From the NCBI GenBank assembly GCA_963833225.1, contig CAWHXD010000019.1, forward strand, positions 576,001-640,000: a DNA stretch of 64,000 bases, read 5' to 3'. The position numbers were made by a program, and so were the translations under genes. The first letter of the stretch is position 1. Each line of letters begins with the position of its first letter. Positions 20,179 to 26,308 of this stretch are shown here, piece by piece. The notes below the pieces were generated by a model, which ran no database searches, had not been told where the DNA came from, and saw only the letters and a program-made list of their open reading frames with translations. The stretch comes from an uncultured Chloroflexia bacterium (GTDB taxonomy: Bacteria > Chloroflexota > Limnocylindria > Limnocylindrales > CSP1-4).

Positions 20179-21066
20179 GTGAACACGCTGCCGACGCCCG
20201 ACGCCCTCGACCGCCCGCTTGTCGCCGACGGGGCGATGGGCACCATGCTGTTCGCCAATGGATTGCCCATCGGCGAGGCCCCCGAAGCCTGGCTGCTCAC
20301 CCCCGAGGGGGAGGCCGCGGTCGCCAACGTTCATCGTGGACACGTCGGTGGTGGCGCGGAGATCGTGCTGACATCCACGTTCGGCGCCAACTCGCTTCGC
20401 CTTGAGACCTCGGACGTGCCGGGTCGCTCCGTGGAGATCTGCCAAGCGGCGGTCGCCGCCGCTCGCGCCGGCGCGGGCCTGGACACGATCATCGCGGCCT
20501 CCATGGGGCCGACCGGCGGCCTGCTGATGCCGTACGGGCTGCTCGACGAGGGCGCGGTGCGGGCCACCTATGCCGAGCAGGCCGCGGCGTGCGCGGAGGC
20601 CGGCGTCGCCGTGCTCTGGATCGAGACCATGATGGATGTCAACGAAGCCGTTGCGGCCGTGGACGGGGCCCGCGAAGGGGCTCCCGGGCTGCCGGTCATC
20701 GCCACCATGACGTTCACGCCCCAGGGCCGGACGATGTTCGGCAACAAGCCCGAGGCGGTCGCGGCCGCGCTGGCGGAGCATGGCGTCGCGGGCGTCGGCG
20801 CCAACTGCGGGGAGGGGTTCGCACCCGTCGAGATGGTGATGGCGGCGATGCGCGATGCCGCGCCGGGCCTCCACCTGGTCGCCAAGGCCAACGCCGGGCT
20901 CCCCACCGTGGATGGCGACGGGGCCACCCACTACCCGGCGACGCCCGAGGAGGCGGCCGCATACGCAAGGGCGGTCGCTGACCTGGGCGCCACGATCATC
21001 GGCGGGTGCTGCGGGACCACGCCGGCCCACATCGCGGCGATCGCGAAGGCGGCTGGCGCCCGCTGA
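20179..21066 (+). CDS. Homocysteine S-methyltransferase family protein (stand-alone)
   Basis: DGAMGT, IETM, GANC and GGCCGT zinc ligands, NAGLP. Confidence 0.92.
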   Translation: MNTLPTPDALDRPLVADGAMGTMLFANGLPIGEAPEAWLLTPEGEAAVANVHRGHVGGGAEIVLTSTFGANSLRLETSDVPGRSVEICQAAVAAARAGAGLDTIIAASMGPTGGLLMPYGLLDEGAVRATYAEQAAACAEAGVAVLWIETMMDVNEAVAAVDGAREGAPGLPVIATMTFTPQGRTMFGNKPEAVAAALAEHGVAGVGANCGEGFAPVEMVMAAMRDAAPGLHLVAKANAGLPTVDGDGATHYPATPEEAAAYARAVADLGATIIGGCCGTTPAHIAAIAKAAGAR

Positions 21067-21234
21067 GTTCGGCAGCACGTGTAGGACCGTGCTGGCAGAC
21101 CGCGCCGTGACCAAGGACCACGGAAGCAGGCATTGGCCGGCCTTCGTTCCTGGACCGCCGGGCGGGGGTGGCGCAGCGCCGTCGGCTGGCGACGTGGAGC
21201 GAGGCAGCGCGAATCGGAGCATGGAGCGGGACCC

Positions 21235-21474
21235 ATGAGACTGATCACGATCGCGACCCTGCTCGTGCTGGTCGTGGCGGTCGTCCGCTGGGGCTACGCA
21301 CTTCGCGGGACCATTGGGAAGCCGCCCGAGTGGGAGCCGCCTCGCCTCCATGTCTGGCCGTTCAAGTTCAAGCGAGACGGGTACCGCCGCTACCTCGCCC
21401 TCTGGCTCGTGGCATTGCTGCTCATCATCGCTGCCATCCTCGTCGGTGCGTGGACGCCGTTCGACGTCCGATGA
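21235..21474 (+). CDS. Small hypothetical membrane protein (79 aa, two TM helices)
   Basis: GGAG RBS; two hydrophobic segments separated by a basic/Pro loop. Confidence 0.6.
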   Translation: MRLITIATLLVLVVAVVRWGYALRGTIGKPPEWEPPRLHVWPFKFKRDGYRRYLALWLVALLLIIAAILVGAWTPFDVR

Positions 21475-21736
21475 GTTCGCCAAGCTTGACTGGTAGGTCT
21501 GAGGTGGTTGCTCGGCAGGTCAGTGGGGGCCCGCGGTTCGATTGAGCAGCGATGACGCTCAGCCCACCGGTGCCCGTGCGCGGCCAGCCCGACCCCAATG
21601 TCGGCGACCGTTTCCTGGGCACTCTCCGTTCATCGTGTCGATCTGCGGCCGACGGCCCGATTTGACCGCCCATCCCTGCACCTCCTGCCGAACCCGAAGC
21701 CCGCTGAGGCGGTACTCGGCACCCGCTGACGGGCGC

Positions 21737-21850
21737 CAAGTCACTAGCGACTGTGGACCGCGACCACCGATCGGAGGTCCGCGCGGGGCCACGCTGAGGT
21801 GGGTGACCACCTCCTCGTGGCGATCGGGCTGGCCAGTCGCTGGTGACTTG
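21737..21850. repeat. 114-bp palindromic element, copy 1 (left of HTH-nuclease gene)
   Basis: Ends CAAGTCACTAGCGACTG ... CAGTCGCTGGTGACTTG (16/17 inverted match); reverse complement aligns ungapped to 22863-22976 at 87/114 by hand count. Confidence 0.85.
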
Positions 21851-21944
21851 TCGAGGGTTGGTGAGCGCCACCTCGGCTGCGCAACCCCGCAAGCCAGCGG
21901 CCCACCAAAGCCCGTGATAAGCGGGGCGGGCTATACCCCCGCGC

Positions 21945-22769
21945 ATGTCCGACCTCGTCGTGCCCCTCGGCAGCCATTCGCTCGCGATCCGCCTCGGTGA
22001 GCTCGTCCGGGACGCGCGGCGGCTCGCCGGCTGGACGCAATCAGAGCTGGCACGCCGGGCTGCCACGACCCAGTCGGCCATCAGCCGGCTCGAGCGCGGT
22101 GTCGCGCAGCCGCTCGACGTGCTCCTCGTCGATCGGGTGCTGGCAGCGCTTGGGTTCCGCGCCAGCCTCGACATCGAAGGTCGTCACCTTGCAGACCGGC
22201 GCCGGCAGCGCGAGCCCGTGCACGCGAGGATGAACGGATTCCTCGCGGCCAACTTGGAGCGGCGCGGGTTTCGGACCGCCCTCGAGGTCCCGGTCGGCGA
22301 CCCGTCACCACGCGGCTGGATCGACCTGCTCGCCTTCCGACCGGTCGACCGGGCGCTGCTCATGGACGAGACGAAGGGCGACCTCCCCGATGTCGGCGCG
22401 TTCCAGCGCAGCCTCGCCTTCTACGAGCGCAACGCCCGCGAGGCTGCGAATCGGCTGGGCTGGAGCGCGACACGGCTCGTGGTCCTGGGCACGATGCTGG
22501 ACAGCGCGACGATCGCCACGCGCCTGGCGGAGAACCGCGAGCTGCTCGGGAGGGCGTTTCCCTCGCCGGTGGACCGCCTGCTCGCGTGGATCGACGACCC
22601 ACAGGCCCCGGCCCCCTTTGCCTGGACGCTGGCGACATGCGATCCGGCGAGTCGTTCGGCGGCATGGCTGCGGCCACCCATGGTGGGGACGCGCCGGCGA
22701 CCCATCGCCTACGCCGACTATGCCGAAGCCGCCGCCCGCCTGCACCGGGCGGGTCGCCGTCGACGCTGA
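21945..22769 (+). CDS. XRE-family HTH protein fused to putative PD-(D/E)xK nuclease domain
   Basis: RDARRLAGWTQSELARRAATTQSAISRLERG HTH; ALEV...GWIDLLA...LLMDETK nuclease-like motif; TATACC 7 nt upstream. Confidence 0.8.
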   Translation: MSDLVVPLGSHSLAIRLGELVRDARRLAGWTQSELARRAATTQSAISRLERGVAQPLDVLLVDRVLAALGFRASLDIEGRHLADRRRQREPVHARMNGFLAANLERRGFRTALEVPVGDPSPRGWIDLLAFRPVDRALLMDETKGDLPDVGAFQRSLAFYERNAREAANRLGWSATRLVVLGTMLDSATIATRLAENRELLGRAFPSPVDRLLAWIDDPQAPAPFAWTLATCDPASRSAAWLRPPMVGTRRRPIAYADYAEAAARLHRAGRRRR

Positions 22770-22862
22770 GCACGTGGGACGCTGTGCCGATGGGCCCCCC
22801 TCGACACGGAACACGCAGGACGGTCTCTGCCGACAGGTCCCCCTCGATGCGGAGCACTGCCG

Positions 22863-22976
22863 CAAGTCATCAGTGACTGGCCAGCCCGACCACCACGAGG
22901 AGGTCGCCGCTGACCCAAGCGTGGTTGCGCGCGGAGCTCCGTTCAGTGGTCGTCGACGGCAGCCTGAGGTGACTTG
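22863..22976. repeat. 114-bp palindromic element, copy 2 (inverted relative to copy 1)
   Basis: Ends CAAGTCA ... TGACTTG; same length as copy 1, ~76% identical to its reverse complement. Confidence 0.85.
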
Positions 22977-22988
22977 ACGCGGCCTGAT

Positions 22989-23097
22989 CGCCACATGGCC
23001 CCGGAGCGCCACATGGCCCCGGGGCGCCACATGGCCCCGGGTCGACCTGGCCCCGGGTCACCACCTGACGCGGCCTGCTCGCCACCTGGCCCCGGGT
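22989..23097. repeat. 18-bp tandem repeat CGCCACATGGCCCCGG(AG/GG) x3 plus degenerate units
   Basis: Units start at 22989, 23007, 23025; further (C/G)ACCTGGCCCCGGGT copies to ~23097. Confidence 0.85.
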
Positions 23098-23109
23098 GGC
23101 AACCGGGGG

Positions 23110-24009
23110 CTACCCCCGCGGTCGTGACCTCGCCGCGATCCGCCCGAGCGCGCCCTCCCAGCCGGCGTCGAACGGCTTGCCGGGCTCGTCGAGGTCGATG
23201 ACCACGGGCGCGTGGTCGGACGGGGTGGGCGGACCCTTGCGCGCCTCGCGGTCGATCTCCGCCCACACAACCCGCGACGCCACCGGCGCCGTCGCATACA
23301 GCAGGTCGATGCGCATGCCCTCGTTCTTGTGGAACATTCCGGCCCGGTAGTCCCACCACGAGAAGCGTCCGCCATCCGGCTGGAACGCGCGGTAGGTGTC
23401 CACGAGGCCCCAGGACCGCAGCCGCGCGAGGGCCTCGCGCTCGGGCTCGGAGACGTGGGTGCCGCCGTGGGCCTTCGCCGGGCTCCAGACATCCAGGTCG
23501 GATGGCGTCACGTTGTAGTCGCCCCCGAGCACGAGCGGCGCGGTCGGCGACTGCGTCTCGGCCAGCCAGCGCGAGAGCCGCTCGAACCAGCGCAGCTTGC
23601 CCTCGTAGAACGGCGAGCCCACCACGCGTCCGTTGGGGGCGTACAGCGACGCGACCCGGACCCCGCCGCACACCGCCGACACCATGCGCGCCTCGTCGAA
23701 CGGGTCGAAGTCGTCCTCGCTCACCGCCACGGACGCCCCAGCGGAGGAATCCCGCACCGCCCCGTCGCCGAAGTTGGTGACCACGTCCTCGACCCTCACC
23801 CGGCTCAGGATCGCCACGCCGTTCCAGCGTCCTTCACCGTGGTGGGCCATCTCGTAGCCCAGCATCCGCATCGGCATCTCTGGCGCGTCGGCGTCGGACA
23901 GCTTCGTCTCCTGGATCAGCAGCACGTCCGGCTCGGCGCGCGCGAGCCACTTCTCGACGGCCTCCTGGCGGGCTTTGAGCGAGTTGACGTTCCAGGTCGC
24001 GATGCGCAT
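23110..24009 (-). CDS. xth: Exodeoxyribonuclease III
   Basis: MRIATWNVNS, LIQETK, NGVAILS, LYAPNG, GGDYN, FSWWDYR, RIDL, PSDHAPV. Confidence 0.96.
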   Translation of the reverse strand: MRIATWNVNSLKARQEAVEKWLARAEPDVLLIQETKLSDADAPEMPMRMLGYEMAHHGEGRWNGVAILSRVRVEDVVTNFGDGAVRDSSAGASVAVSEDDFDPFDEARMVSAVCGGVRVASLYAPNGRVVGSPFYEGKLRWFERLSRWLAETQSPTAPLVLGGDYNVTPSDLDVWSPAKAHGGTHVSEPEREALARLRSWGLVDTYRAFQPDGGRFSWWDYRAGMFHKNEGMRIDLLYATAPVASRVVWAEIDREARKGPPTPSDHAPVVIDLDEPGKPFDAGWEGALGRIAARSRPRG

Positions 24010-24049
24010 GAGACCCCTGACTGCGAGGCCCTGATCCTACCCGGCGACC

Positions 24050-24767
24050 CTACCGCTTGGGCGCCTTCACGACGATCGGCTCGTCGACCCTGCTGAACTC
24101 GTAGGTTGCCGTGAACGTCTCGCTGCTGGTCGCGAGCGTAGGGCCGGAGCCGGACAGCTCCATGCGCAGCGGCGTGCCGTCGGCCGCGATCACGAGCGTG
24201 AGCGACTCGATCCGGCCGACCTTCCCCTCCGCCCGCATCGTGAGCGACTGGTACGTGAACGGGCGGCCGCAGGCGAAGGCCAGCCCCTCGGGTGCGTCGG
24301 CGGCCGGCCCGGTGTACTCGAGGTCGTCCAGCCAGCACAGGAACAACCACGGGTTGGTCACCTCATCGAGCAGCCGCTCGTCCGCCGTGCCCGCCCGCCA
24401 CTTGCCGTTGCCGATCTTGACGAACGTCACCGCACCGACATGGCGCAGCTCGAACGGCTTGGTCCCAGGGCTCGTCACCTTCGCCGCGAAGCCGCTGCCG
24501 GCGACATCGAGGGTGATGGTCGCCTTGATGCCGCCGCCCGTGGTCGAGATCACCTCAACGACGTGGAAGGTGAGGTCCGTCGCGGGCGATGAGCGGTCCG
24601 AATGCCCGGAGGGCAAGGTCGGCCTCTGCGGCACCCGGCAGCGGACTGGCCGGCGGCTCCGGCGGCGGGTCCGTGTACGTCGCCGGCTGTGGGTTGCCGC
24701 CTGCGCCGCATCCGGCGAGCAGGAGCGCCGCAGCGAGGATGGGCGCGGCAGCGCGGGACCAGGCCAT
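24050..24767 (-). CDS. Hypothetical lipoprotein (LppX/LprAFG-like), +1 frameshift near 24582
   Basis: MAWSRAAAPILAAALLLAGC lipobox in one frame, beta-rich body ending EFSRVDEPIVVKAP in the next; length 3n+1. Confidence 0.65.
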
Positions 24768-24820
24768 CCGGGCCGGCAGTCGTGCGCCTGACTCCCAGGT
24801 CCGCGTGTCGGTGTGGAGGC

Positions 24821-24929
24821 GCTTGGCCTCCTGGATCCGCAGCACGTCCGGCTCGGTGCGGGCCAGCCACCCCTCGACGGCCTCCTGGCGGGCTTTGAGC
24901 GAGTTGACGTTCCAGGTCGCGATGCGCAT
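24821..24929 (-). pseudogene. xth: xth 5' fragment (about 36 codons)
   Basis: MRIATWNVNSLKARQEAVEGWLARTEPDVLRIQEAK, then similarity stops. Confidence 0.85.
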
Positions 24930-24934
24930 GCCGC

Positions 24935-26308
24935 TCAGTGCCCGCCACGCCGGAGCAAACGGCGCGCCCACCGCATCGGTTGGCTGGCGGGGTCAGACGT
25001 CGTCCGGCGGGCGCCGTGGCCTCCGTAGGTACCGAGCGCGGCGACCAGCTCCACCTGTGCCGCCTGGACTGCGGGGTCGGCCAAGATCGGGTGCAGGTCC
25101 CAGGCTCGCAGGCGGGCCTCGTCTTCCGGGCTCATGCGTTGCAGCCATGTGTCGAGACGCAGACGGACGTCGTCGCGGCAGCCGGCGGGCAGCAGGTCGG
25201 CGGACGGGCCGTACCAGCGCGTCAGCCAGTCGAGGTCGGCCGCCGCGGCTTCGGTGCGCGTTGCCAGGCGCCGGAGCACCGGGTGGTCGCCCGTGTATCG
25301 CGCCATCGTCCAGGCGATCACGTTCTCGTGCTTGATGGGGTAGGCCTCGAGCCGGTGCCGGACGCGCGCATCGCTGAGCATCGTGTCGACGACAGCACCG
25401 TCCGGCCAGATCCCCGTCTGAGCGGCGTCGAGCAGCAGCTTCCGAAAGCACTTCCAGCATCGGCCGCATGGCTCGCCGACCCGGCCCCTGATGCACGACT
25501 GCGAGATGGCGGCATACGGCGACCGTCGCACGATGTCCGCCGTTCCCACCTCGCTGACCCCGGCGACCGCCTGGCACATCGGGACCCCGACCGCGGCGAA
25601 CAGTGATCCCCACGACTTGCCCTTGTTGCCCCAGTCCGCGTAGACCTCGTGCCCGACGTCGTAGGCCGACTCGGCGATGAGCCCCCATGCCGCCCCGTTG
25701 AGGTGTTCGATGTCCGCGAGCAGCAGGAGCCCTGCCCCGTTCACCCAGTCGGTGGTGAACCCCACCGGCAGCCGGACATGCTCGACGTCCGATTCCACGA
25801 CGGTGACACGCCGGCCCTGTCGCTCGAGCTCGCGACAGGCATGGAGGGCCGCCTCATCCGAGTACCGCGAGCGATGGACCGCATCCGGCGCGTCGATCCG
25901 GCGCATGAATGATAGGAACGTTGTCTCTGGGAGGACCGCCAGGGCCGCTGTCGAGTCGGCTCCGGCACTGAATGCAAGGCCGACCACACCGTCGACCGGT
26001 GTCGGCCGGGCGGTGAGCGCAGGGTCGACAGGGCCGACGGTGACCCCGAGGACGTTTGCCACGCAGCCGGCAAACGCTTGACTCACACCGCGAGTGACCC
26101 TGAGCCCACTCGAGAACGGGGAGGCAACGAGGATCGCGACCAGCGCCTCCACGTCGGGATGAACATCGGCCGGCCGGATGCGGTCAGGGAGGCGGAACCG
26201 GGCCTGGTGCCGGGCGAGCCGGACCCCGCCAGCCGCGTCGCGATCCCCTGGTTCCGGACGGAGCGCCAGCGTGACCGTGCTCTCGGTGTAGGTCGTGGCG
26301 ACGTGCAC
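24935..26308 (-). CDS. DUF6395-like protein with PP-loop-like motif
   Basis: VHPDVEAL, LAFSAGADSTAAL, GVSEVGT, QSCIRG..PCGRCWKCFRK; family recalled from motif pattern, not searched. Confidence 0.7.
   Translation of the reverse strand: MHVATTYTESTVTLALRPEPGDRDAAGGVRLARHQARFRLPDRIRPADVHPDVEALVAILVASPFSSGLRVTRGVSQAFAGCVANVLGVTVGPVDPALTARPTPVDGVVGLAFSAGADSTAALAVLPETTFLSFMRRIDAPDAVHRSRYSDEAALHACRELERQGRRVTVVESDVEHVRLPVGFTTDWVNGAGLLLLADIEHLNGAAWGLIAESAYDVGHEVYADWGNKGKSWGSLFAAVGVPMCQAVAGVSEVGTADIVRRSPYAAISQSCIRGRVGEPCGRCWKCFRKLLLDAAQTGIWPDGAVVDTMLSDARVRHRLEAYPIKHENVIAWTMARYTGDHPVLRRLATRTEAAAADLDWLTRWYGPSADLLPAGCRDDVRLRLDTWLQRMSPEDEARLRAWDLHPILADPAVQAAQVELVAALGTYGGHGARRTTSDPASQPMRWARRLLRRGGH

Follow-up and report, generated by a model that had tools for sequence, protein, structure and literature searches.

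The locus occupies a small part of a window of 64,000 nucleotides (the whole stretch of DNA that was analysed) and consists of a gene for a 274-aa protein that lies between two copies, e1 and e2, of a 114-nt repeat (Table 1). The distance from the gene to the upstream copy is 94 bp and to the downstream copy 93 bp; these gaps, the inverted orientation of the copies, their identity of 87/114 and the pairing of 16/17 terminal positions in copy 1 had been given in an earlier note on this DNA, and a recount returned exactly the same values. The identity was counted without gaps in the inverted comparison; the direct comparison of the two copies gives 69/114, and random 114-mers of the window give a mean of 33/114. 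A repeat search over a 2.8-kb region detects the pair as a single long inverted repeat with arms of 118 nt (21733-21850 and 22863-22980) that are 76% complementary, the second-longest inverted repeat in the same region being only 42 nt long.

Table 1. Features of the locus (positions are those of the window)
Feature	Position	Strand	Remarks
e1, element copy 1	21737..21850	+	e-type 114-nt repeat with paired ends CAAGTCAC...GTGACTTG; long hairpin; best match of model R2
Spacer between e1 and promoter block	21851..21898	.	poorly conserved; alignment to G204 gapped
Putative promoter/operator block	21899..21944	+	
AAAGCC box	21907-21912	+	inside the promoter/operator block
TAAGCG box	21918-21923	+	within GATAAGCG (21916-21923), promoter/operator block
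-10-like CTATAC	21931-21936	+	8 nt upstream of ATG
Gene for the 274-aa protein	21945..22769	+	XRE-type HTH at about aa 12-76; PD-(D/E)xK nuclease domain at about aa 90-250
Spacer between stop codon and e2	22770..22862	.	19 gapped columns against G204
e2, element copy 2	22863..22976	-	e-type repeat inverted relative to e1; hairpin degraded; R2 match of 108.7 bits on the - strand
18-bp tandem repeat, 3.9 copies	22989..23057	.	intergenic, between e2 and the 3' end of xth; outside the conserved unit

The suggestion that each copy folds into a hairpin holds for copy 1, whose predicted fold of -75.3 kcal/mol is not equalled by any of 200 shuffles (z -5.5 on the + strand and -6.1 on the - strand), but not for copy 2, where only 12/17 terminal positions pair and the fold does not stand out from shuffled sequences (z -1.75 and -1.52). 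Both elements are nevertheless selectively conserved. Against the closest orthologous locus, which is found in genome G204, e1 is 85% and e2 87% identical, the putative promoter block 93% and the gene 91% at the nucleotide level, while the upstream and downstream spacers retain 54% and 44% identity and the outer flank past e2 retains 32%. Tandem repeats similar to those beyond e2 are also present in G204, where they are not alignable with those of the window.

Searches for other recognizable features returned little. Rfam, searched at E <= 1 over positions 21000-23800, gave nothing relevant, its sole match being a chance similarity to a miRNA; a simple sigma-70 consensus scan was empty; T-tract terminators are absent at the locus; and the neighbourhood of the 274-aa gene contains no methyltransferase or kinase partner gene.

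The HTH-nuclease protein and its putative promoter

The XRE-type HTH proposed for the N-terminal part of the protein is recovered by Pfam as HTH_3 (E 3.3e-8, 33.9 bits against a cut-off of 23, aa 21-56) and HTH_31 (E 2.9e-7, 31.1 bits against a cut-off of 27), and its structure resembles HipB and C.AhdI with Z of 10-11. The E...ID...ExK motif that had been pointed out in the C-terminal part corresponds to E114, D127, E142 and K144, which are invariant in 37 homologues and likewise in a 23-sequence alignment of the domain. In a model of the nuclease domain alone (pLDDT 92.4, pTM 0.88) this part of the protein has a PD-(D/E)xK nuclease fold, with the alpha/beta core of restriction endonucleases, and is predicted to cleave DNA: nearly all of its best 50 structural neighbours are PD-(D/E)xK nucleases, headed by XisH (2okf, Z 8.9 with 117 aligned residues), Upx (Z 8.7) and NucS (Z 8.3). 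Its neighbours in the structure searches also include Can2, Hjc, FokI, McrC and TnsA. Foldseek returns the same kinds of nucleases with weak E-values.

Searches at the sequence level reach the HTH and no further: Pfam reports HTH families only in the 274-aa protein, with no HUH/Y1 domain, a sequence-profile search of the PDB gives HTH proteins only, the matches of PADLOC and NCBIfam are confined to the HTH, and an Atlas search gives only unnamed Chloroflexota clusters. The absence of an HUH motif, noted earlier for the protein, extends to this 86%-complete genome, which has no match to PF01797 (Y1/HUH), while 6/14 control genomes have one. The gene diverges much faster than the neighbouring xth (75% against 93% identity in G221 and 58% against 87% in G032), and genes of the family are often pseudogenised, with stops in many of the matches.

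The layout of boxes in the promoter block recurs upstream of paralogues and distant homologues, and of 82 distinct upstream regions 38 contain one sense box or more, the background rate being 0.002 per 90 nt. The HTH region and the promoter-proximal box are conserved even among paralogues with unrelated element ends. Because the binding domain and the boxes stay constant while the ends of the elements differ, the DNA-binding domain does not evidently co-vary with the element, and the HTH probably autoregulates its own gene, as judged from these sequences; a reading of the element termini by the HTH is less likely.

Repeats and gene lineages in related genomes

The protein belongs to an unnamed multi-copy family that comprises 1,462 representative clusters or more and is present in 144/158 sampled genomes of one Chloroflexota family, with 2-10 matches per genome, though each lineage may be single-copy. 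A metagenome scan with the single protein as query found no confirmed relative, and the same scan with an alignment as query found 80 loci, all at <=60% identity. The lineage is contained in 14 listed sequencing runs, all with small shares and none of them an RNA run.

Elements are enriched next to genes of this family. A strict scan for paired ends within 260 bp of the gene at non-redundant loci finds an element upstream at 12/75 loci and downstream at 7/72, while far flanks give a background of 0.0185 per 260 bp and the genome as a whole one of 0.0167. The upstream and downstream flanks of the same gene resemble each other at 18/62 loci and at 1/104 controls, while the remaining 44/62 loci of the wider family lack bracketing similarity by the criteria used. 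The expectation that homologues carry flanking elements of about 114 nt is thus borne out as an enrichment, but the inverted arrangement seen in the window is that of a minority: the bracketing copies are inverted at 4/18 loci and direct at 14/18. Within the genus, covariance models run with filters off at E <= 0.01 find at least one flanking element at 10/11 loci and elements on both sides at 5/11; for the eight loci left out of model building the numbers are 7/8 and 3/8.

Three paralogues in this genome each have an element type of their own; the 114-nt core is found throughout, and the sequences are unrelated. For the P7-type, there is only slight compensatory change (paired cells make up 79.9%, as against 78.8% in shuffles; covariation score 0.140 against 0.125, a score reached by 14/500 shuffles) and RNAalifold gives no consensus structure for the alignment, and the fold of the consensus sequence was used in its place to describe the hairpin. 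The bottom strand is the more stable one in 25/35 P7-type copies, with no consistent relation to the orientation of the gene. There is some polarity of the elements relative to the gene, as CACGCT occurs in 12/36 elements and its complement in 5/36.

In addition to the flanking copies, the repeats occur as free-standing solo copies at about 3 to 27 loci per genome, and they are kept at orthologous sites between species. The P7-type model has 21 matches in G000, 53 in G202 and 36 in G204; since both strands were counted, the number of loci is about half of that. Gene remnants or promoter boxes were found near 0/9 solo copies in G000 and at 3/3 control units. Across 61 genomes, the occurrence of two element families follows that of the gene lineage to which each belongs, in counts that are confounded by kinship, by a model sensitivity that falls with distance and by the incompleteness of many genomes. 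All eight genomes with at least 10 P7-type matches have a P7-like gene at >=61% identity, and of the 31 genomes without a homologue at E <= 1e-40, 28 have no P7-type match and three have 2-7. High e-type numbers are seen in G204 (34 matches), G208 (29) and G221 (12) alone, and these three, unlike all the other genomes, carry an orthologue of the 274-aa protein at >=75%. The two families dissociate in both directions, G202 having 53 P7-type and 4 e-type matches and G208 having 2 and 29, respectively. G193 and G237 are exceptions to the co-occurrence; G193 has a 71% P7 homologue yet no model match. The REPIN-like dispersal anticipated from the single locus is present, both in the existence of solo copies and in an abundance that follows the cognate gene lineage.

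Direct traces of movement were sought in comparisons of filled and empty sites with relatives, which yielded neither a target-site duplication nor a clean 114-bp insertion. At two sites with exact adjacency of the flanks, in genomes that are 10-15% diverged, the extra DNA amounts to 232 and 379 bp and so exceeds the element, and no duplication is seen; at the c3 site and the C8 solo site the intergenic flanks are too diverged for an empty-site comparison. With both signs absent from the comparisons, the mobilisation of the elements by the enzyme, which had been proposed in the earlier note, is still a candidate only. Downstream of xth, genes of the family or their remains occupy the same site in several genomes. 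A replacement hotspot at this site was considered and rejected: the G032 and G227 genes are unresolved in the tree, and the AU test keeps the xth-adjacent genes, a group named after the tree had been seen, compatible with one vertical lineage (p = 0.11).

Possible relations between the nuclease and the repeats

We give a probability of roughly one half to what we regard as the best reading of these data, namely that the locus represents a partnership of the REPIN/RAYT kind between a repeat and an enzyme, in which the enzyme is a non-HUH nuclease. The locus would then belong to a family of compact modules, probably selfish, in which an autoregulated HTH-PD-(D/E)xK gene lies between two copies of its cognate 114-nt hairpin repeat. 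The HTH would repress its own promoter through the conserved TAAGCG-type boxes, and the nuclease would act on the repeats of its own family in their folded or cruciform state, an action that, with the assistance of host repair, would lead to copying or relocation of the repeats. Binding or cutting of the elements by the protein, their multiplication as its consequence and the autoregulation are inferences. The partnership is supported by the fold and its active site, the frequency of elements next to genes of the family, the separate 114-nt element type of each of three paralogues, the solo copies, the parallel occurrence of element families and gene lineages, the conservation of both elements beside decayed spacers, and the lack of matches to a Y1/HUH transposase, and of above-cut-off matches to an integron integrase, in the 86%-complete genome. 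Counting against it are the missing traces of movement, the constancy of the HTH and the boxes where element ends differ, the weak compensatory change, the many wider-family loci without bracketing similarity, the lack of P7-type matches in G193, the weak elements beside the family genes of G202, a pair of e-type copies around a lipoprotein gene in G204 and the confounding of the genome counts. The mechanism is incomplete, because PD-(D/E)xK enzymes cut DNA and are not known to join it on their own. The bolder proposal that the hairpins form a previously unrecognised class of mobile DNA, 114 nt long and multiplied by a dedicated HTH-PD-(D/E)xK nuclease, perhaps by an action on cruciform or hairpin DNA like that of junction-resolving members of the fold, would make them REPIN-like replicators within the genome whose origin was independent of HUH transposases; it is made tentatively, and we think it more likely to be wrong than right.

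The same elements might instead delimit small mobile cassettes as their sites of recombination, with the HTH-nuclease gene as no more than the commonest, and a selfish, cargo. A circle of the gene and one element would enter a resident element, which yields the element-gene-element order in direct orientation. Later the two copies would recombine with each other, so that the gene is deleted and a clean solo element is left in the manner of solo LTRs; the recombination would be the work of the host's homologous system or of an unlinked recombinase. The prevalence of direct pairs among the bracketed loci agrees with such a cycle, and so do the shared site downstream of xth and the solo copies of G000, which are as free of gene and promoter remnants as clean recombination footprints would be. 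It is also favoured by a pair of e-type copies on contig C10 of G204 that differ at 6/122 printed positions (about 95% identity) and bracket an unrelated lipoprotein gene, although this is the single non-family cargo seen. An identity of that cargo with the lipoprotein encoded in the window was considered and rejected, the two being unrelated. The inverted pair of the window itself would be flipped and not deleted by recombination, and an integron integrase above the cut-off is absent (the best match to TIGR02249 in the 86%-complete genome scores 83.6 bits against a cut-off of 265), and the element ends CAAGTCA/TGACTTG and TGATCGC/GCGATCA do not match the attC core. A further difficulty lies in G202, where many near-identical solo copies of an amplified subfamily score 110-130 bits and differ in type from the flanks of all family genes assembled in that genome, which have only weak flanking elements (15-28 bits), since every such copy would require the insertion of a whole unit followed by its deletion. 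We therefore consider the cassette cycle unlikely, at perhaps half the weight of the partnership with a nuclease.

A more sedentary role of the repeats is less likely still. The nuclease could be a potentially toxic enzyme of defence, addiction or a restriction-like function kept under tight autorepression by its HTH, with the hairpins serving as terminators, insulators or mRNA stabilisers against read-through and the dispersed copies being a host REP-like family with a similar housekeeping role that the enzyme does not move. The position of the conserved putative promoter/operator between the upstream element and the gene fits such an arrangement, as do the resemblance of the HTH to controllers of restriction-modification systems and HipB antitoxins, the polarity of the elements relative to the gene, and the fast evolution relative to xth and frequent pseudogenisation that are also seen in conflict genes. 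It leaves unexplained why each gene lineage has a repeat family of its own and why the abundance of that family follows the lineage; moreover, terminators of the T-tract type are lacking and the defence-system match does not extend beyond the HTH. Far less probable than this is that the two have no functional link, so that ordinary paralogous regulators lie in intergenic DNA that is rich in repeats, and the association stems from common descent and from the preference of an unrelated MITE for certain insertion sites. The majority of wider-family loci without an element and the kinship behind the genome counts are what one would then expect, but the scarcity of similar flanks among controls, the conservation of both elements beside decayed spacers and the recurrence of the architecture at three paralogues of one genome with unrelated element sequences are not, and no DDE or HUH transposase was identified whose ends match.

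Should the partnership with a restriction-like nuclease in the role of RAYT be true, partnerships between repeats and enzymes evolved more than once, and a novel chemistry would be needed for an enzyme that only cuts to multiply hairpin elements; the small size of the protein and the 114-nt length of its substrate make this chemistry open to testing. The analysis also gives a first functional handle on this unnamed family in an abundant uncultured lineage of soil and freshwater, in whose genomes the element families can serve as a marker of genome dynamics. No description of this pairing of a nuclease with a repeat was found in the openly accessible literature searched, PMC11602168 included, and the earlier note likewise knew of none.

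Comparison with known systems

Several known systems share one or another property with this locus. XRE-type controllers and antitoxins such as C.BclI, C.AhdI and HipB match the N-terminal domain in sequence and structure, and direct or inverted boxes overlapping their own promoter are typical of XRE autoregulators; here, in contrast to them, the HTH is fused to a nuclease and stands without an adjacent methyltransferase or kinase gene. XisH, the excision-controlling factor of the fdxN element (2okf and 2inb), comes closest in structure to the nuclease domain and, going by the title of the entry, is a PD-(D/E)xK-fold protein linked to the excision of a DNA element. It has no HTH fusion and is only 11-13% identical in sequence, and Z values near 8-9 indicate a match at the level of the fold only.

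Integron attC sites are imperfect palindromes of about 60-140 nt in which structure is conserved rather than sequence, and, like them, the elements flank genes in direct orientation and occur as solitary sites. Unlike integron cassettes, they go with one gene family instead of diverse cargo and form no arrays. MITEs such as Correia/NEMIS, ERIC and RUP are comparable in their length of about 100-150 bp, their terminal inverted repeats, their intergenic location and their dispersed copies at the level of families. However, a MITE derives from an IS element by internal deletion, and in the parent IS the repeats are confined to the outer ends, whereas here the gene has a complete element on either side, mostly in direct orientation, with no DDE transposase; nor is a target duplication, which would be expected around each MITE insertion, seen at the two adjacency sites, where the extra DNA is longer than the element and the genomes compared are 10-15% diverged.

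The closest parallel is that with REPIN-RAYT systems, the textbook case of short repeats that are kept and copied by a domesticated enzyme, all known examples of which have an HUH/Y1 transposase. These systems consist of REP doublets and REP-associated tyrosine transposases (PMC3337134, PMC3116915, PMC5581495 and bioRxiv 2022.05.22.493013). The present enzyme differs in being an HTH-PD-(D/E)xK nuclease and not an HUH/Y1 transposase of the IS200/IS605 type, the elements are longer and have a fixed 114-nt core, and the copy number is lower (about 3 to 27 loci) in a gene family that is multi-copy as a whole (2-10 matches per genome), although each of its lineages may be single-copy, as would be expected of a vertically inherited RAYT gene. 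Both systems have a short hairpin repeat made of two inverted ends and dispersed in intergenic DNA, a cognate enzyme gene that is itself flanked by copies of the repeat, a separate repeat family for each gene lineage within one genome, and repeats that persist at orthologous sites. In REPIN-RAYT systems the repeats are expected to decay or disappear where the enzyme gene is missing, and here their abundance tends to follow the presence of the gene, in counts with the exceptions and confounders given above.

The element pair and its gene

The inverted pair of 114-nt elements that the earlier note had described around the gene of a 274-aa protein was recovered: copies e1 and e2 agree at 87/114 positions when inverted versus 69/114 when direct, against a mean of 33/114 for 114-mers taken at random from the window, and a repeat search returned 118-nt arms with 76% complementarity. 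The inverted repeat is real and far above chance. The gaps of 94 and 93 bp between gene and elements were also recovered, and on recounting, the ends pair at 16/17 positions in e1 and at 12/17 in e2. Of the two hairpins that had been proposed, that of e1 stands (-75.3 kcal/mol, z -5.5, 0/200 shuffles as good), but in folding e2 cannot be told apart from its shuffles (z -1.75 and -1.52).

Coordinates of the features (window positions unless a contig is named)
Feature	Position	Strand
Small ORF between mmuM and e1	21133-21474	
Element e1	21737-21850	+
Inverted-repeat arms	21733-21850 / 22863-22980	
Gene of the 274-aa protein	21945-22769	
Element e2	22863-22976	-
18-bp tandem repeat immediately outside e2	22989-23057	
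Copies of the first 128 bp of xth	23883-24010; 24803-24930	
Lipoprotein gene bracketed by the xth copies	24050-24634	-
ORF of the distal xth-start copy	24555-24971	
Shorter paralogues in the window's genome	G000:C4:565-1344; C8:631288-631866; C6:366595-367251	
Lipoprotein locus L208	G204:C10:13000-15800	
e-type elements within L208	759-880; 1882-2003	

At the orthologous locus of another sampled genome, G204, the conserved block is exactly e1, gene and e2, identity being 85% in e1, 54% in the spacer, 93% in the promoter block, 91% in the gene, 44% in the second spacer, 87% in e2 and 32% in the right flank; further to the left the two genomes carry unrelated DNA. The promoter block contains between one and three [AT]AAG[CT]G boxes in direct orientation, spaced by about 11 nt, and, 7-12 nt ahead of the start codon, a -10-like GCTATAC or GCTACAA. 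One or more sense boxes occur in 38 of 82 distinct upstream regions (43 boxes, 1 antisense; background 0.002 per 90 nt), and the box layout is common to the paralogues on contigs C7 and C17. Because boxes and HTH are conserved while the element ends differ, we infer that the HTH autoregulates the gene and does not read the element termini.

The tandem repeat outside e2 has 3.9 copies with 90% matches, and a 33-nt stretch that begins at the e2 end is found again, with 91% identity, 91 bp beyond. The small ORF, an apparent two-helix membrane protein, is missing at this place in G204, where tandem GGCACCCG-type repeats stand instead, and the mmuM-xth gap is about 50-110 bp in G114, G219 and G228. 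The start of xth (- strand) is duplicated about 0.8 kb upstream, with 88% identity between the copies, and an in-frame fusion joins the distal copy to a lipoprotein-like signal sequence, an arrangement also found in G202.

The HTH-nuclease protein and its family

An XRE-type HTH (about aa 12-76) was the sole domain detected by Pfam, NCBIfam, PADLOC and PDB sequence searches, and the protein is, as had been claimed, without an HUH motif or domain. The predicted full-length model has a pLDDT of 89.7 and the domain-only model a pLDDT of 92.4 and a pTM of 0.88. A structure search with the latter returned almost exclusively PD-(D/E)xK nucleases, among them XisH (Z 8.9, rmsd 3.5, 117 aligned), Upx (Z 8.7), NucS (Z 8.3), Can2, Hjc, FokI, McrC and TnsA, Z values of about 8-9 denoting a match at the level of the fold and no closer; Foldseek gave the same kinds of nuclease with weak E-values (best 2e-3). 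Residues H93, A94, E114, G124, D127, E142, K144, D149, G172 and W173 are invariant among 37 aligned homologues. Fold-level Z values and invariant motif, taken together, make the PD-(D/E)xK assignment sound and support the C-terminal fold predicted in the earlier note.

Of 201 genomes from the order, 145 have homologues (E <= 1e-10), which are confined to one of its families (144/158 genomes, versus 0/42 in the other), with 1-10 matches per genome and internal stops in many hits. Databases name them solely as HTH regulators of Candidatus Limnocylindrales/Chloroflexota, and the Atlas holds unnamed clusters only. The nuclease-domain profile matches 1,462 representative clusters (E <= 1e-3), and in most of the listed members the domain begins about 75-100 residues in, which leaves space for an N-terminal domain resembling the HTH of the window protein. 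The window's genome has paralogues on C7 (59%) and C17 (47%), plus three more distant ones. A shorter, more distant subfamily, matching about aa 12-230 at 28-35% identity, was found in most genomes of the Chloroflexota family sampled.

Elements beside family genes and dispersed copies

The prediction that homologues would be flanked by inverted elements was borne out as an enrichment of elements beside family genes, in pairs that are mostly direct. The locus set comprised 110 loci from genomes and metagenomes, reduced to 86 by dropping genes more than 95% identical. A strict scan (14/16 end pairs, total length 100-130 nt, within 260 bp of the gene) finds an element upstream in 12/75 loci and downstream in 7/72, the background per 260 bp being 0.0185 in the far flanks (13 hits over 182,505 bp) and 0.0167 genome-wide (250 hits); since it misses the window's own e2, it undercounts. 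In a second, independent test, the 300 bp upstream of each gene resembled its own downstream 300 bp in 18/62 family loci versus 1/104 controls. In 8 of these 18 loci the common stretch is 115-125 bp long (overall 50-181 bp), and most such stretches fold into terminally paired hairpins; 4 pairs are inverted and 14 direct, a call that is uncertain for weakly asymmetric copies. Covariance models (filters off, E <= 0.01) detect at least one flanking element in 10/11 genus loci and both in 5; among the 8 genus loci outside the training alignments, the counts are 7 and 3.

The C7 paralogue has elements on both flanks; the C17 paralogue is preceded, at a distance of 78 bp, by a 114-nt element whose paired ends are different. 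This C17 element, although unrelated in sequence, is detected (40.5 bits) by the model of the P7-type, a second 114-nt family with its own gene lineage. In 36 elements from the 18 bracketed loci, the strand-specific 6-mers CGATTC (12/36, 1.5 expected) and CACGCT (12/36, 2.4 expected) are enriched across otherwise unrelated families, and AGCGTG, the complement of CACGCT, occurs in 5/36, which hints at a common core with a polarity relative to the gene.

Both P7-type and e-type (e1/e2-like) repeats are dispersed beyond gene-flanking sites, as the copy count proposed earlier revealed. In an alignment of 35 P7-type copies the core has a constant length of 114 nt, with inverted repeats of 19-20 nt at its termini and a palindrome at its centre (consensus fold -78.8 kcal/mol). 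Among 61 genus genomes, P7-type hits number 53 in G202, 46 in G032, 36 in G204, 27 in G243, 22 in G197, 21 in G000 (the window's own), 19 in G209 and 14 in G221, with zero in 38; e-type hits number 34 in G204, 29 in G208, 12 in G221, 7 in G197, 6 in G000 and 4 in G202, with zero in 51. Hits count both strands, so loci are about half as many. Around nine solo copies in G000, no remnant of a family gene was seen out to 1.3 kb and no promoter box out to 200 bp, and the control units were positive in 3/3; two of three G000 solo sites are also occupied in G204, so copies can persist across species.

In many P7-type copies of G202 (L172-L191) the similarity extends about 30 bp beyond the core on either side, and some of these copies lie in a still larger repeated unit that is alike between loci in its outer flanks too, a sign of nested or composite repeats. 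A solo element of 110 nt whose ends pair (L145, G200:C13) lies some 110 bp from the xth 3' end, at the site of the nuclease gene in other genomes; there G095 keeps only a gene remnant (aa 216-269), and the G227 copy has internal stops.

Abundance tends to follow gene lineage, with counts weakened by kinship, by model sensitivity that falls with distance and by incomplete assemblies. A P7-like gene at >=61% identity is present in each of the eight genomes where the P7-type scores 10 hits or more, and of 31 genomes without a homologue at E <= 1e-40, 28 have no P7-type hits and 3 have 2-7. The e-type is numerous solely where an orthologue of the window protein of at least 75% exists (G204, 93%; G208, 86-87%, in two frames; G221, 75%), and G202 and G208 have opposite patterns for the two families. 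At 86-87% xth identity, G032 and G209 have both gene and elements; in G121, G058 and G123 both are missing, or no more than a partial gene or a single model-hit locus is present. Exceptions are G193, where a 71% homologue goes with 0 hits, and G237, where 7 hits go with no homologue.

Explanations and known systems

All evidence is comparative, and the majority of the genomes, which come from uncultured organisms, are incompletely assembled. We give roughly even odds (about 0.5) to a repeat-enzyme partnership working like REPIN/RAYT, in which the nuclease would recognise repeats of its own family when they are folded or form a cruciform, its cut would let host repair copy or relocate them, and the HTH would hold the gene repressed. 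Several findings sit badly with a simple mobile-element account, among them a lipoprotein gene bracketed by e-type copies (below). The comparison of empty and filled sites in relatives gave neither a target duplication nor a clean 114-bp insertion. Compensatory change within an element family is weak, which suits decaying copies of a hairpin-shaped master and is no proof of structural selection. For the genes next to xth in six genomes, a tree and an AU test (p = 0.11) allow a single vertical lineage that evolves fast, and flanking elements of the assembled family genes in G202 are weak, unlike the amplified solo subfamily there.

The elements might instead be recombination sites bounding mobile cassettes, the HTH-nuclease gene being the commonest cargo. 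At L208 two direct e-type elements, differing at 6 of the 122 positions printed (identity about 95%), enclose an unrelated lipoprotein gene in place of a family nuclease gene. Such cargo and direct orientation are better explained by cassettes than by the REPIN/RAYT-like reading; cassettes account less well for the window's inverted pair and for the burst of nearly identical solo copies, and we consider them rather doubtful. Less likely still, the elements would shield an autorepressed, potentially toxic nuclease gene from read-through, the dispersed copies being REP-like repeats of the host, which accounts for the promoter and the fast evolution and leaves the lineage-specific repeat families unexplained.

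In the portions of the literature that it covered, our search turned up no account of palindromic repeats partnered with an HTH-PD-(D/E)xK gene, which is weak evidence of absence. A MITE/IS pair was rejected because whole elements flank the gene. Neither an HUH transposase nor an integron integrase was found in the window's genome, which is 86% complete. The system is not a member of REPIN/RAYT, because its enzyme is not of the HUH/Y1 kind that defines the latter; in behaviour the two are alike.
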